From Eledone cirrhosa (taxonomy: Eukaryota): 64,000 nt of DNA. Position 1 is the first letter of the stretch; the number at the start of each line of letters is the position of its first letter. A program made the translations under genes and the position numbers. Positions 38,166-44,703 of this stretch are shown in pieces. The stretch spans positions 197,470,001-197,534,000 of the forward strand of contig OZ024743.1 of the NCBI GenBank assembly GCA_964016885.1, given 5' to 3'. Under the pieces are notes generated by a model. The model worked only from the letters and a program-made list of their open reading frames with translations. It had not been told where the DNA came from and made no database searches.

Positions 38166-38380
38166 TTTCATTTCTCACTCTTAGTAAGTATGCATACTTA
38201 TATTTAAGTAGCAGCCGTACTAAGAGTGAGAAATGAAATTTCGTTTCACTTTTTCCGTTTATCGTTTTCGGTACCCGGGCCGATTAACTCACTCGATATG
38301 CAAATTAGGCTGCTCAGCCGTTAATATGCATAAGGAAAGTATATACTTTCAGACGTTCAACCATCTGGCAGGAAGGTATG

Positions 38381-38421
38381 CGTTGCTGACGATAGCTAAT
38401 AAGCTTGAAACTAGTACAGCG
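38381..38421 (+). ncRNA. Minimal type I hammerhead ribozyme
   Basis: CGUUG-CUGACGA-UAGC(UAAUAA)GCUU-GAA-ACUAGU-A-CAGCG. Confidence 0.88.
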
Positions 38422-38811
38422 TTCCTTTGTCAGTGTTGAATAAATGAGCAACGATGGTTGCTAGACACTGTACGGCTTAATTCGGGTTGTTTGTTTACAA
38501 ACACACCGAGCATTATAATAAATGTTCGGTGAATCCATACGTACATGTATATATGTGTGCATGTATGTATATATATATATACATACTACTGTACGTCTGT
38601 ATACATATATGTATGTAGGTATACATACTTATATTTAAGTAACAGCCGTACTAAGAGTGAGAAATGAAATTTCGTTTCATTTTTTCCGTTTATCGTTTTC
38701 GGTACCCCGGCCGATTAACTCACTCGATATGCAAATTAGGCTGCTCAGCCGTTAATATGCATAAGGAAAGTATATACTTTCAGACGTTCAACCATCTGGC
38801 AGGAAGGTATG

Positions 38812-38852
38812 CGTTGCTGACGATAGCTAATAAGCTTGAAACTAGTACAGCG
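38812..38852 (+). ncRNA. Minimal type I hammerhead ribozyme (second copy)
   Basis: Identical to 38381-38421. Confidence 0.88.
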
Positions 38853-39899
38853 TTCCTTTGTCCGTGTTGAATAAATGAGCAACGATGGTTGCTAGACACT
38901 GTACGGCTTAATTCGGGTTGTTTGTTTACAAACACACCGAGCATTATAATAAATGTTCGGTGAATCCATACGTACATGTATATACGTGTGCATGTATGTA
39001 TATATATATATACATACTACTGTACGTCTGTATACATATATGTATGTAGGTATACATACTTATATTTAAGTAACAGCCGTACTAAGAGTGAGAAATGAAA
39101 TTTCGTTTCATTTTTTCCGTTTATCGTTTTCGGTACCCCGGCCGATTAACTCACTCGATATGCAAATTAGGCTGCTCAGCCGTTAATATGCATGAAGAAA
39201 GTATATACTTTCAGATATCCTGGTTGAAGAATAATTATACATATGTATAAATTTTATCTGTAACATATTATTTTATTTTATTTTTACCTTATATATACCT
39301 ATATACATAATAGTTATTCAAATATTTATAACAATAAGTACTTCAAAAGTTTTACATACATAATATGTTGGGATATTTGTTAACGTTTAGATTTGGGTAA
39401 TTAATCAACAGTATAATATTTCATTCTTTACGTGCCAGCTAAATCCTTTAAAATATTTTTCTCACAATTCAGAAGTTTAGAAATGATAACACACTTATCG
39501 AATTTATATAAATAATATATAATTAAATAGCAAATAATCCTGAAATCTGGAGTCTTCACATTAATATTATAAATTAAATATTTCCAAATTCTAACAGTTT
39601 AATTTTCGACCCCCCCCCCACACTTTATCTTTCCCTCCTTATAAATCTTTTTCCAGTGGCTATCACTGGCTGTTATGACTCATGAGACGTTTCCCTAGAT
39701 ATTATTGTATCATACAATTTAAAATTTTAGAACACTTTAAGTATGCAACGTTTTTTCTTACTCACACATTCTCTAATGAATTCATTACGTTTTCGCACTC
39801 TCACAAAGATATTATATAAGCAAAATTTTCTATCGAGTAATCACTACCTTGATTAAATCTTAACCATTTAACATCTCAGGGTATGTCATGTATCATTAT

Positions 39900-39952
39900 A
39901 TTTTGTCTGATGAGGACGTACTGTTGTACATCCGAAATATGTATAATAAAAT
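39900..39952 (+). ncRNA. Minimal type I hammerhead ribozyme in a short repeat (~39843-39998)
   Basis: AUUUUGU-CUGAUGA-GGACGUAC(UGUU)GUACAUCC-GAA-AUAUGUAU-A-AUAAAAU; family also at 54.8 and 55.1 kb. Confidence 0.85.
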
Positions 39953-40023
39953 GTAATTGATCAAAAGAACATCCATTTAATTAATACTTATATTTTAATA
40001 TATATATATATATATATATATAT

Positions 40024-41474: not shown

Positions 41475-42050
41475 CTAGCAGTGGTACCCAGCGTTGCACG
41501 GGATAAGGTATTGTGAAATATATAACCGCCTTAGCTAAGCTTAGTATTGCCACAACCACGGCTGGCAAAGAAGTAAGAGTCTGGTGGTACGTAAGTAAGC
41601 AACACTGTGGCTTAAAACGTGAGGAAGAAGTTGTGTGCACTTACCAACTGTTTGGGGAATGAGTGTGAGATTTGTCCTGAGCAAGGGTGGCAAAATAACC
41701 GGAGGCAGCAGACAGCCAGACATACAGACAGATATTATAAGGGCGCGTTCTGGACGCAGAGCGAATTGTAGGAAGTGACGTAATACAGACATATATTATA
41801 AGGGCGCGACATTATATGTATGTATATATCTAAAGAGAGAAAGACTAAGAATTATAGAGAGAGATCGCTAAATCGCCTAATGCAGTCCCTAGGGCATTGA
41901 TAATTTGAAATTTATTTTGCTCAGAACACTCCCTGAAACATAAATATTACATGTGTAAAGTTTGAAAACAGTCGGTTGGGTACTTCTCTAGTTTTAGGGA
42001 TTCAAACTCACACACACACAGACAGATATCCTCAGTTTTATATATATAGA
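41475..42050 (-). mobile_element. Non-autonomous Helitron
   Basis: Minus strand 5' TCtatatatataaaactg; 3' hairpin cccgtgcaacgctggg then CTAG; A|T site. Confidence 0.8.
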
Positions 42051-42299
42051 TAACAATAATTTCAATTGATATTGAAATTTTATATTGAATATATTTAATT
42101 TTGTTCTTGTTATATCTCGGTCGTACTGAACGAGTGAAGGGAATGCATTGAGATTTTGATAGTGGTCCTGAAGATACTCTGAATTATGAGGAGTTAGGAT
42201 ATAGGTTCCGATAATTCGGTGCAAGGCTTTGATTGTTACTCTGATGCCTTGAAATTTTCCTGGTATTTCTTGAGACAGGTATCAGGTGTCGATTAGGTG

Positions 42300-42675
42300 T
42301 TAGGATGATGGCAGAAGAAACGGGCTTGGAAAAAATTGCTGTTCACAGAATTTTAACACACCAAACATTTATGCAAAAGTTGAGCCCAAACATAGCACAG
42401 TGATTTGAGAATTTCTGTCGAATAAATGCATACATACTCTTCCACATCCACCTTACATCCCAGATCTAGCTCCGTTTAATTTGTACCTCTTCCCTAAGAT
42501 AAAATTGAAGTTGATATGTCATCACTTTGGGACGGTAGAAAACATACAAAAATTGTAACTGACGAGCTATGGACACTCACAGAAAATGACTTCCGGTAAT
42601 ACTATGATCAATGGAGAAAGCGTTGGAACTAATTTGTTACTTCCCGGGGTTCGTATTTTGAAGGAGATAACTTTT
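42300..42675 (+). pseudogene. Mariner transposase C-terminal relic
   Basis: LPHPPYIPDLAPFNLYLFPKIK and YDQWRKRW..V.SRGSYFEGD match the mariner YSPDLAP and GxYFE motifs. Confidence 0.85.
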
Positions 42676-43374
42676 AACGTGTAATTCACAGCCACTTGCA
42701 CGTTAATTTCACGAGCAGGCTGTTCCGTTGATCAGATCAACTGGATCATTCGTTGTCGTAAACGATGGAGTACAAGTTCATATCTTTCATCGTTTTCTAA
42801 TGTAAGAGGTTGCCTATGGTTTTAAGATAAAATTGTATTTGGAAGAATTTAAGAATAAGATTACCATAATCACTTTTAAGATAGTGTTTTGTACGTAACT
42901 TAAAATGTCTTACATCAACTTTTGGTGGAAGATTTAAAATAAATATTAACATTTCAAAACAAATAGTTTTGTATTGTACAGGTAGGGGCTTTTTCAGGTG
43001 GTTTGGTATCAAAAGGGTTATACGGGAGTGAAATATTAAAAGTGGTATAAGATTTATGATATTAGTACAAGCTATATTAAATTACATTTCTCTACAGCTG
43101 CGACTGTGTTATTTAGTACTAAATTTTAATTATACAATCTATTTAAACTTGATTATCCTAGAACATCAATTTCACTTTTATGTTTATCGTTTCTAATTGC
43201 TGTGAATTATACAGCTTTATTTCTGCCCACGGGCATATACATATATATTTGTAGCAGTGTACTAGCAAAAATGTCGATTTTACAAACGATGTGATTTATA
43301 CTGAACCACACAAGTACACGAACAAGCACACACACACAAATATGTATATATATATATATATTTATTTACGTACG

Positions 43375-43930
43375 TATAGCACGGAATGCATGTGTATAAA
43401 CACACACGCACCGTGTTATATTTTGACGGTATTGTATTAGCTCAATGTACGAGAACAGAGCTGTCATATGTAAAAGAACCCAAAGAACGCTTACATACTG
43501 AAACAGTTTTTATTTGCTTACAATGTTTCATTCATACCGTTGGGTGGGAATCATCAGAGCTTAATAAACACACTGCTGAGTATAAGCTCTACCAAGCTTA
43601 GTCACACGAACAATCGGAATACAATAGAGGGTAAAGATAGGGAGATCGGAGATGGCGAATAAGGAGAGAGTACATGCTGGGGTTGTTAAGCACCACAGCT
43701 AAATGCTAGGGCACAAGCAGATCTCACAAGATGCAGATACAATTGATGGCACACAAAATCAAAAATACAATAGCCCCACAATATTATTTCAGTTACTGTA
43801 AAACCAGCTGGCAAAGAGTTACTACACATGTATTAAGCTCAGATGATTCCTACCCAACGGTATGTATGAAACATTGTAAGCAAATAAAAAAAGTTTGAGT
43901 ATGTAAGCGTTCTTTGGTTTCTTTTACATA
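43375..43930. mobile_element. Inverted-repeat element (arms ~43465-43567 and 43831-43930); hammerheads at 43516-43560 (minus, intact) and 43837-43881 (plus, U4A)
   Basis: Minus: GCU-CUGAUGA-UUC..GAAU-GAA-ACAUUGU-A-AGC. Confidence 0.8.
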
Positions 43931-44061
43931 TATATATATATGTATATATATTCCCCATTTTGACGCTATAGTCACTTATATGTTATGGAATACTGTTAGC
44001 TTCTCGCTACAACAATTTCTATACTTTTCATTTATATATATATATATATATATATATGTGT

Positions 44062-44703
44062 GTATAAATATTTCGTATCTCCAAAGAAATACGGTTTTAG
44101 GAAGCCGTAGTTATGCAAACACAGGGAGGGGGGGCTAACGCCCTCTGGTGATGTCCAGCAGAAGCAAGAGGTACAAGCGTCTATGCATTTCAGGCTTAAC
44201 TGGCCATCGTCAGGACGGACCCTCCCACCGCTTGCAACTGCTGGACTTGAAGACAGGCGAGAATATATAGTTTTCTCATCTGTGTAAATGAGGTGATTAA
44301 TCTCATTTGCATATGAAGCTGCATAAGTTGGCTCAACTTATAATAGAAAAGAAATAGGATTTCGCTTCAAGTATAGCTTAATTATAAGTTGAGTCAACTT
44401 ATGCAGCTTCATATGCAAATGAGATTAATCACCTCATTTACACAGACGAGAACACTATATATTCTCGCCTGTCTTCTAGTCCAGCAGTTGCAAGTGGTGG
44501 GAGGGAGCGTCCAGACGATGGCCAGTTAAGCCTGAAATGCATAGACGGTTGGCCCCCTTGCGTCTGCTGGACTTCGCTAGAGGGCGTTAGCCCCTTGGTG
44601 TTTGTATAGCTACGGCTTCCTAAAACCGTATTTCTTTGGAGATACGAAATATTTATACATATTGTATAAAGCTATGCTTGAAGCGAAATCCTATTTCTTT
44701 TCT
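44062..44703. mobile_element. Head-to-head pair of a ~323-nt hammerhead unit in two circular permutations
   Basis: Arms 44062-44344 and 44381-44658; spacer 44345-44380 is the reverse complement of tail 44669-44703. Confidence 0.85.
44178..44217 (-). ncRNA. Minimal type I hammerhead ribozyme (mutated twin at 44508-44547, plus)
   Basis: CGUC-CUGACGA-UGGC(CAGUUAA)GCCU-GAA-AUGCAU-A-GACG. Confidence 0.88.

Follow-up and report, generated by a model that had tools for sequence, protein, structure and literature searches.

Two hammerhead repeats of Eledone cirrhosa, with units of 431 and 323 nt, both carry an octamer and a TATATA upstream of the ribozyme, and we asked whether these elements form a promoter within each monomer. 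The DNA studied, here called the window, comprises 64,000 nt of the forward strand of assembly GCA_964016885.1 (OZ024743.1:197,470,001-197,534,000). In the 431-nt unit the octamer is followed after 34 nt by TATATA and after a further 40 nt by the core CTGACGA, and in the 323-nt unit the octamer, TATATA and a core mutated to CAGACGA are separated by 35 and 50 nt (Table 1). Motifs and spacings given in a preliminary description of this DNA matched exactly when we re-read the sequence, and the small hairpin described at TATATA was recovered as a predicted hairpin topped by this motif in both units. A DNA promoter would not need such hairpins.

Table 1. Features of the hammerhead units and the proposed promoter module (window coordinates)
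Feature	Position	Strand	Remarks
Inverted piece of 431-nt unit	38166..38210	-	bases 12-55, 87%; 5' side of array
Tandem array of 431-nt hammerhead unit	38184..39215	+	2.4 copies, 98% alike
T-runs	38250..38268	+	T5 (T6 in copies 2 and 3) and T4
Octamer ATGCAAAT, 431-nt unit, copy 1	38298..38305	+	further copies at 38729 and 39160
TATATA, putative TATA box (TATATACT)	38340..38345	+	centre of perfect 16-nt palindrome
GCAG	38368..38371	+	predicted start A38370, 30 nt from first T of TATATA
Type I hammerhead, 431-nt unit	38380..38422	+	core 38386 (second copy 38817); 6-bp stem I; predicted cut after A38416
Third hammerhead family	39813..39950	+	TATATAAG 39813; CA 39842-39843 (+30); core 39907
Left copy of 323-nt unit	44062..44380	-	tail segment first, short 3' end in (TA)n; octamer 44312-44305, TATATA from 44269, intact core CTGACGA 44213
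Right copy of 323-nt unit	44381..44703	+	5'-to-5' with left copy, long 3' end in (TA)n
Octamer ATGCAAAT, 323-nt unit	44413..44420	+	
TATATA, putative TATA box (TATATATT)	44456..44461	+	9-nt loop of 10-bp interrupted hairpin
GCAG	44484..44487	+	predicted start A44486, 30 nt from first T of TATATA
Minimal type I hammerhead, 323-nt unit	44508..44547	+	core 44512, mutated to CAGACGA; predicted cut after A44543
39-nt tail	44663..44701	+	between 3' termini 44662 and 44701; ends in T4 run
Third-family sister copy	54752..54894	+	plus-strand part preceded by inverted arm

Both units are short tandem repeats with type I hammerheads, as seen in the 431-nt array and in head-to-tail joints of the 323-nt unit from organisms A and C. 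Their GC content is below 45% (0.37 and 0.43), and no ORF of at least 120 aa was found inside either. In this they resemble the metazoan non-LTR retrozymes, low-GC, non-coding tandem repeats of ~300 bp with a type I hammerhead, for which Penelope-like elements have been proposed as mobiliser (Cervera and de la Pena 2020, PMC7229834). The canonical retrozyme hammerhead has a 6-bp helix I, a 4-bp helix II and loop contacts; stem I measures 6 bp in the 431-nt unit and 4 bp in the 323-nt unit, the hammerhead of which is minimal. Self-cleavage and a circular monomer RNA, two further traits of retrozymes, are putative for these units. Stem III is a short palindrome in both (ACTAGT and ATGCAT, respectively). 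Rfam returned no family at gathering score in the window and no hammerhead among the 150 of 211 matches listed. A stricter hammerhead descriptor detected the two 431-nt cores only, with no match in 10 shuffles, and a relaxed one gave seven passing cores, the shuffle control covering the stricter descriptor only. A Penelope-type intron ending near the ribozyme was considered but not adopted: AG acceptors and one good donor (38376) are present, yet sites of this sort are frequent in sequence of such composition.

Penelope-like elements and their derivatives (PMC8557442, PMC4209133, PMC2377424, PMC11167929) have an inverted 5' copy, a 30-40-nt tail from two RT starts, (TA)n or AT-rich targets, a hammerhead with palindromic stem III and a promoter in the upstream pLTR, but differ from the present units, which contain no ORF. 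Inverted 5' copies with partial tandems occur at both loci, as the inverted pair of the 323-nt unit and as the small inverted fragment at the 5' side of the 431-nt array, whose right end stops 8 nt past the third TATATA. The 323-nt family also shows the tail, the AT-rich target and both 3' termini, followed by (AT)n in 20 contigs (44662) and 18 contigs (44701), and the T-run of the tail measures T4-T6 at head-to-tail joints. Each 323-nt copy has roughly the length of one circularly permuted monomer, as expected from a circular template, and both begin at the monomer junction and not at the predicted +1; among the 7 loose ends listed (220 further ends exist) none lay at 44486. The 323-nt unit is a non-coding hammerhead repeat mobilised in the Penelope manner, and its family is abundant, with 3359 contigs of one run mapping to it. 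At 44513, where the right copy has A, 24847 of 25234 depth units of sequencing run X1 carry T. A scan of 18 of the 66 ORFs of the window for an RT partner yielded one weak RVT_1 match (E 0.003) and no GIY-YIG; with no matching RT found there, the units can be called autonomous, as proposed previously, in the transcriptional sense only.

Taken singly, octamer and TATATA are ordinary in this sequence: TATATA has 1479 overlapping matches per strand, and the octamer was seen 7 times against 5.6 expected, 5 of the 7 lying inside the two units. Their combination is unusual. The frequency of a shared 8-mer with a 6-mer at equal spacing was 0.13% in 20000 shuffles and 0.27% in 3000 random window pairs, and that of a shared 10-mer at similar offset was 0.4% and 1.1%, respectively; with 0.1-0.3% for an equivalent module of two words, the match is unlikely to be due to chance. 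The spacers between octamer and TATATA also align, with 19 of 34 positions identical (p=0.0036 against shuffles, 0.0035 against random 34-mers of the window; one of 7 segment tests between the units), whereas no alignment was obtained upstream, from TATATA to the core, or downstream of the ribozyme (p 0.2-0.5). The earlier statement that the intervening sequences differ applies to the segment from TATATA to the core but not to the spacer, and with p about 0.004 for the spacer it is too strong to call the units unrelated. A scan of metagenomes for octamer, TATATA and core (118 of ~440 estimated loci) gave gaps flat over 30-40 nt, a weak hammerhead-like fold in 1/118 and CA at +30 in 10/118; these values are those expected by chance and say nothing about animals, and the scan served solely as a control.

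Further support for a promoter came from the distance between TATATA and a putative start. In both units GCAG follows exactly 22 nt past TATATA, so that 30 nt separate the first T from a CA step, which is the distance preferred between TATA and start; in mouse CAGE data this distance is 30-31 bp, with pyrimidine-purine at -1/+1 (PMC1779604). The 22-nt stretches are of equal length despite only 7/22 identical positions, and the 10-nt length difference between the units falls 3' of GCAG. CA at one offset within +29..31 in both units was obtained in 0.6% of 200000 shuffles. As any same-offset 4-mer within 40 nt occurs in 11% of shuffles, GCAG carries weight solely through its position. The shared CA at exactly +29/+30 agrees with the earlier prediction of a start ~25-30 nt past TATATA, and the octamer lies at -72/-73 from this predicted start. 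Scored against the consensus TATAWAWR, neither TATATACT nor TATATATT fits in full, and TATATAAG of a third hammerhead family does. The assignment of TATATAAG at 39813 to this third element is putative. No octamer within one mismatch was found in the 200 nt upstream of it. The spacing from first T to start that is typical of Pol II TATA/initiator promoters is present, for the predicted starts, in the third family as well as in both units. In the sister copy at 54752 the plus-strand part sets in no more than about 2 nt from the predicted +1. In each of the three descriptor-passing families, one or more copies combine TATATA with CA at +30, and this applies to 5/7 passing cores compared with 13/205 other isolated TATATA; the remaining two cores have lost their upstream part through inversions. 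Among 20 cores checked, three weaker ones (25709, 33336 and 34039) have an upstream TATAWA but not CA at +30, and 13 are without any upstream TATAWA.

From these sequence features, both units probably hold an internal TATA/initiator Pol II promoter and are non-coding hammerhead repeats moved in trans, a reading that we favour slightly. The earlier proposal of one promoter per monomer gains from the shared CA at +29/+30 and from the same geometry in the third family. What the sequence shows is the motifs with their spacing, the anatomy of the hammerheads and, for the 323-nt family, an insertion structure of Penelope type; transcription, the polymerase, POU binding, self-cleavage and the identity of the RT are inferred. 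No RNA run was among the matches listed when sequencing runs were searched with the 323-nt unit, an outcome that carries no weight as to expression. Within each monomer of such retrozyme-like units, a candidate POU-factor octamer would occupy about -72 and TATA -30, and the CA step would precede the core by 16-26 nt. Transcription starting in one monomer would pass through the next, so that the promoter would be kept in the 3' part of a multimer, or of a circle that dimeric hammerheads would cut from it. Reverse transcription by a putative Penelope-like element would then begin shortly upstream of the octamer, at either of two sites separated by 39 nt, and insertion at (TA)n would regenerate copies bearing the promoter. 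More tentatively, diverged animal hammerhead families may keep one such Pol II grammar within the monomer (TATA at -30, CA at +1, and the POU octamer at -72 in two of them), the promoter upstream of its own start being retained through retrotransposition solely because a multimer or circle serves as template. The label of snRNA-type promoter fits poorly, since the distal octamer of that type is located at -250 to -170 (PMC9652321) and not at about -72. In favour of the promoter reading, Penelope elements likewise have their promoter ahead of the ribozyme, in the pLTR. The candidate also differs from the Drosophila Penelope promoter, which is described as TATA-less, in its TATA, CA at +30 and octamer. 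This TATA-less promoter is the only Penelope promoter characterised, an observation that speaks against a TATA-based reading.

Alternatively, the shared block may be an RNA or ssDNA recognition structure for the Penelope RT/endonuclease, with two hairpins and TATATA in a loop, inherited from a common ancestor and transcribed by read-through or from a TATA-less promoter; we regard this as unlikely. In favour of the promoter, none of the variants of at least 3% listed for the 323-nt family in run X1 falls in octamer, TATATA or GCAG. With zero listed sites in the 14 bases of octamer and TATATA (P=0.36), however, these motifs do not exceed their surroundings in invariance: a block of 124 nt around the octamer is wholly free of listed variants. 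This block covers both 3' termini as well as the octamer, with a run-length p=0.0007, or 0.019 if 5 further weak variants all fall inside. A contig of a second organism spanning the joint and octamer region, which counts in favour of the promoter, showed 3 differences in 58 nt. Depth peaks were left out as a measure of conservation, since mutations private to the reference copy reduce mapping. Also consistent with a recognition structure, the hairpin arms differ compensatorily between the units (GAAAG/CTTTC vs GAGAA/TTCTC), 44468 as the most variable nearby site is unpaired, and the anole element RNA needed by the protein reaches tens of nt past the RT starts (PMC11167929). However, no alignment of the two families was obtained at the termini (p 0.20 and 0.52), in contrast to the stretch from octamer to TATATA; the latter motif lies about 75 nt beyond the long terminus. 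Variant sites avoid pairs weakly in the right-copy fold (12/22 unpaired, p=0.048) and not in the left-copy fold (8/22, p=0.69), and the CA at +30 would be left unexplained.

A compact type 3 (H1/U6-like) Pol III promoter, made up of octamer, a PSE within the 34-35-nt spacer and TATA, appears improbable; it would give a 215-310-nt RNA ending at the T-run that precedes the next octamer, and multimers through leaky read-through. In snRNA-type promoters a PSE lies at about -70 to -40; the slot found here has room for a ~20-nt PSE and a 15-19-bp spacer, it is the part that aligns between the units, and human H1 fits the same three elements into 100 bp. By eye the spacer is unlike the PSE of S. japonicum, the one invertebrate PSE compared. 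T-runs had been cited previously against Pol III. In the 431-nt unit the T5/T6 and T4 runs are the sole runs of at least four T, 30-48 nt upstream of the octamer, and in both units all such runs lie within 50 nt upstream of it, just where a terminator would sit, an arrangement that a Pol III unit would also show. The argument stands in so far as T5-T6 runs would end the very transcripts needed to carry the promoter onward. That the two units are distantly related TA-rich sequences sharing a few words as neutral remnants or by chance, with TATATA as centre of a fold-back hairpin, seems least probable. In its favour, TATATA is very frequent, every one of the window's 7 octamers reads ATATGCAAAT, close in sequence to local TA-rich repeats, our tests were devised after the motifs had been seen, and the octamer occurs in two families only, but coincidence would then have to account for how rarely the whole module arises, for the constant 22 nt that put CA at +30, and for the third family together with the point at which its sister copy begins.

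An internal promoter in hammerhead repeats is, as a general idea, already known from newt, schistosome and Penelope. The newt satellite 2 promoter reportedly combines an octamer-like element with a PSE. According to Coats et al. 1994, as cited in PMC2220036 and PMC6765202, newt satellite 2 is likewise a hammerhead repeat, of ~330 bp, that Pol II transcribes from an internal promoter, but one described as snRNA-type, whereas the geometry found here is set by TATA and the initiator step. The SINE-like hammerhead satellites of schistosomes (PMC6765202) have the same order of promoter and hammerhead in each tandem unit, the upstream unit transcribing the next; they use Pol III, whereas the candidate elements described here precede the predicted start and are more in keeping with Pol II. 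An octamer tens of bases upstream of TATA is also found in vertebrate immunoglobulin V and human H1 promoters (PMC5241823, PMC7949045), H1 being the known compact exception to the distal octamer of snRNA-type promoters; the gap is 27 nt in fugu IGLV1 and 34-35 nt here, and since these are vertebrate cellular genes the likeness is one of layout only. The octamer-TATA-CA layout was not found in print for hammerhead repeats in titles and abstract openings of the mostly open literature. Intense transcription of animal retrozymes has been reported for every tissue tested, in a paper that names no promoter; in the main text of PMC7229834 no endogenous promoter is given, and both uses of the word refer to T7.

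The module supplies exact, testable starts and two motifs for mutation. If the promoter reading is true, a TATA/octamer type would join the snRNA-type (newt), Pol III (schistosome) and TATA-less (Penelope) solutions, and an abundant repeat family would spread transcription-factor-responsive promoters through the genome, its thousands of copies representing dispersed POU-responsive promoters.

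Re-checking of the octamer and TATATA upstream of the hammerhead core in the 431-nt and 323-nt units confirmed all coordinates and gaps of the preliminary description, and in both units TATATA caps a predicted small hairpin, as noticed before. The second core was also correctly placed at 44512, but reads CAGACGA in this right copy; on the minus strand, the inverted sister copy holds CTGACGA (44213), and the letter of the family at the mutated position is T (24847 of 25234 depth units of X1, the contig set richest in this unit). TATATA alone is frequent in the window (1479 per strand) and the octamer alone is near expectation (7 found, 5.6 expected); their pairing, unlike the single motifs, is uncommon. 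When the 150 nt upstream of both cores were compared, an 8-mer plus equally spaced 6-mer in common occurred in 0.13% of 20000 shuffles and 0.27% of 3000 random window pairs, and a common 10-mer at similar offset in 0.4% and 1.1% respectively, both tests having been devised once the motifs had been seen. The observation is real and, with a further shared element added, the module comprises octamer, 34/35 nt, TATATA, 22 nt and GCAG.

Coordinates of hammerhead repeats and other features in the window
Feature	Position	Strand	Remarks
431-nt unit, tandem array	38184-39215		2.4 copies
323-nt unit, left copy of 5'-to-5' inverted pair	44062-44380	minus	within (TA)n
323-nt unit, right copy of 5'-to-5' inverted pair	44381-44703	plus	within (TA)n
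Both inverted copies	44062-44703		permuted-monomer length would fit circular template
Third family, candidate TATA	39813		TATATAAG, putative part of element
Third family, CA (+30)	39842-39843		TATA and CA in the single copy having long upstream sequence
Third family, core	39907		
Third family, three diverged copies	39813-39950; 54666-54905; 55067-55194		local inversions in two
Hammerhead-like inverted pair	43466-43931		CAGATGA in right arm; no TATAWA found upstream; one-mismatch octamer ATGCAGAT near 43731 by eye
CTGATGA of this pair	43557	minus	family resembles real minimal hammerhead by eye
CTGATGA...GAAA cores failing structure descriptor (repeats or sites)	33200-33440; 27627-27838; 6774-6985; 34039; 40748; 8469		
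GC-hairpin repeat, CTAG near one end, presumably Helitron-like	37818-38171; 43008-43361; 45961-46370		95-97% alike; first copy adjoins 431-nt array
Long tandem array	13014-21261		60-nt unit x138, open frames
Long tandem array	61151-62359		43-nt unit x28
GGT-rich array	55427-57653		open frames >=700 aa on both strands; no Pfam match for minus-strand frame
Probable LINE fragments	40024-40587; 11959-12531		weak DUF6451 and RVT_1 matches
Near-perfect fold-back	40976-41111		centre ~41043, adjoins long (TA)n

GCAG lies exactly 22 nt after TATATA in both units, following a stretch otherwise unlike (7/22 identical), and the 10 nt by which the units differ in their TATATA-to-core distance lie 3' of it. 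Its A is 30 nt from the first T of TATATA; in mouse CAGE data the commonest TATA-to-start distance is given as 30-31 bp, and positions -1/+1 as a pyrimidine-purine step (PMC1779604). CA in both units at one common offset within +29 to +31 was obtained in 0.6% of shuffles, any 4-mer at a common offset within 40 nt in 11%, and GCAG therefore counts by position only. The same geometry is found at five of seven cores passing the structure descriptor, representing all three families, compared with 13 of 205 other isolated TATATA. Among 20 cores checked, three weaker ones have TATAWA without CA at +30, and 13 lack an isolated TATAWA, including the 43557 family. The third family (core 39907) has no octamer, and its sister copy near 54752 begins at most ~2 nt from the predicted-start A. 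CA at +30 thus lends new support to the promoter reading, with this A as predicted start.

Both units carry type I hammerheads with a palindromic stem III (ACTAGT in the 431-nt, ATGCAT in the 323-nt unit), which receive no score in an Rfam search; for Penelope-like elements, such hammerheads are reported to cleave as dimers (PMC4209133). The 431-nt array has a short inverted piece of the unit on its 5' side. The units had been called unrelated, which holds for the upstream, TATATA-to-core and downstream segments (no alignment, p 0.2-0.5), but not for the octamer-TATATA spacer (19/34, p=0.0036, one among seven segment tests); stem II aligns at 10/14 positions. The units are distant relatives or have a module in common, with the octamer-TATATA block and ribozyme retained.

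Among the readings compared, we rank an internal Pol II promoter first and consider it somewhat probable. Ranked second, and rather unlikely, is a structure recognized by the RT, on which sequence variation bears. The variant set comprised 22 positions with a minor letter of at least 3% in X1 among the variants listed, leaving out those private to the reference copy or listed for other runs only; five weak variants fall outside those listed. The motifs had been expected to be more conserved than their flanks: none of the listed variants falls into octamer or TATATA, but this is not outstanding (P=0.36). Invariant among them is a 124-nt block (44654-44703 plus 44381-44454; p=0.0007, or 0.019 if all five further variants fell inside); the region around the octamer is therefore constrained, and octamer and TATATA do not stand out from it. 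As the block also covers both RT termini, RT recognition gains. Variant sites tended to lie outside base pairs on one fold (12/22 unpaired, p=0.048), a tendency absent on the other (8/22, p=0.69).

A type 3 Pol III promoter, third in rank, is improbable. All T-runs, T5-T6 and T4 for the 431-nt unit and T4-T6 for the joint of the 323-nt unit, are found at most 50 nt upstream of the octamer. Those of the 431-nt unit had been taken to argue against Pol III read-through. A transcript made by Pol III would end at these runs and lack the promoter, and Pol II therefore accounts better for the propagating RNA, although a Pol III terminator would occupy just this position. The full TATA consensus is TATAWAWR, which the TATA of neither unit fits. 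The snRNA-type label is a poor fit, since the octamer would lie at -72/-73 from the predicted start, as against -250 to -170 given for most snRNA promoters (PMC9652321); compact octamer-TATA layouts are described for human H1 and fish immunoglobulin genes. Chance or neutral remnants come last and are the least probable, given the rarity of the pairing.

Internal promoters in hammerhead repeats are already known: newt satellite 2 is cited as having an snRNA-type Pol II promoter and schistosome satellites a Pol III promoter (both in PMC2220036, PMC6765202), and the Penelope pLTR promoter is described as TATA-less. The available text of the retrozyme paper reports intense transcription and names no promoter. 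Among titles and beginnings of abstracts, no description of the octamer-TATATA module was found; monomer sequences published in supplements may have this layout or another.

When the 323-nt right copy was mapped against four contig sets, 3359 contigs matched in X1 and 1, 2 and 1 in the sets from three other organisms. Head-to-tail joints were seen in organisms A and C. At 44494, 34 contigs run on into another, related hammerhead, whose core is CTGATGA and whose stem II differs, and therefore represent a diverged subfamily with the same upstream part. The unit ends at either of two 3' termini, 44662 or 44701, and (AT)n follows in both cases. Penelope elements are marked by a 5' copy in inverted orientation, a tail of 30-40 bp and insertion into microsatellites (PMC8557442), the tail length equalling the spacing of two RT start sites (PMC11167929). 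A partner RT was not found among the 18 of 66 window ORFs scanned. The window has the look of an AT-rich animal genome and, as a mere impression, of a cephalopod. Both window copies are about one circularly permuted monomer, differently permuted, and start at neither the ribozyme cut nor the predicted transcription start; the template of the 323-nt copies would therefore be a multimer or circle.
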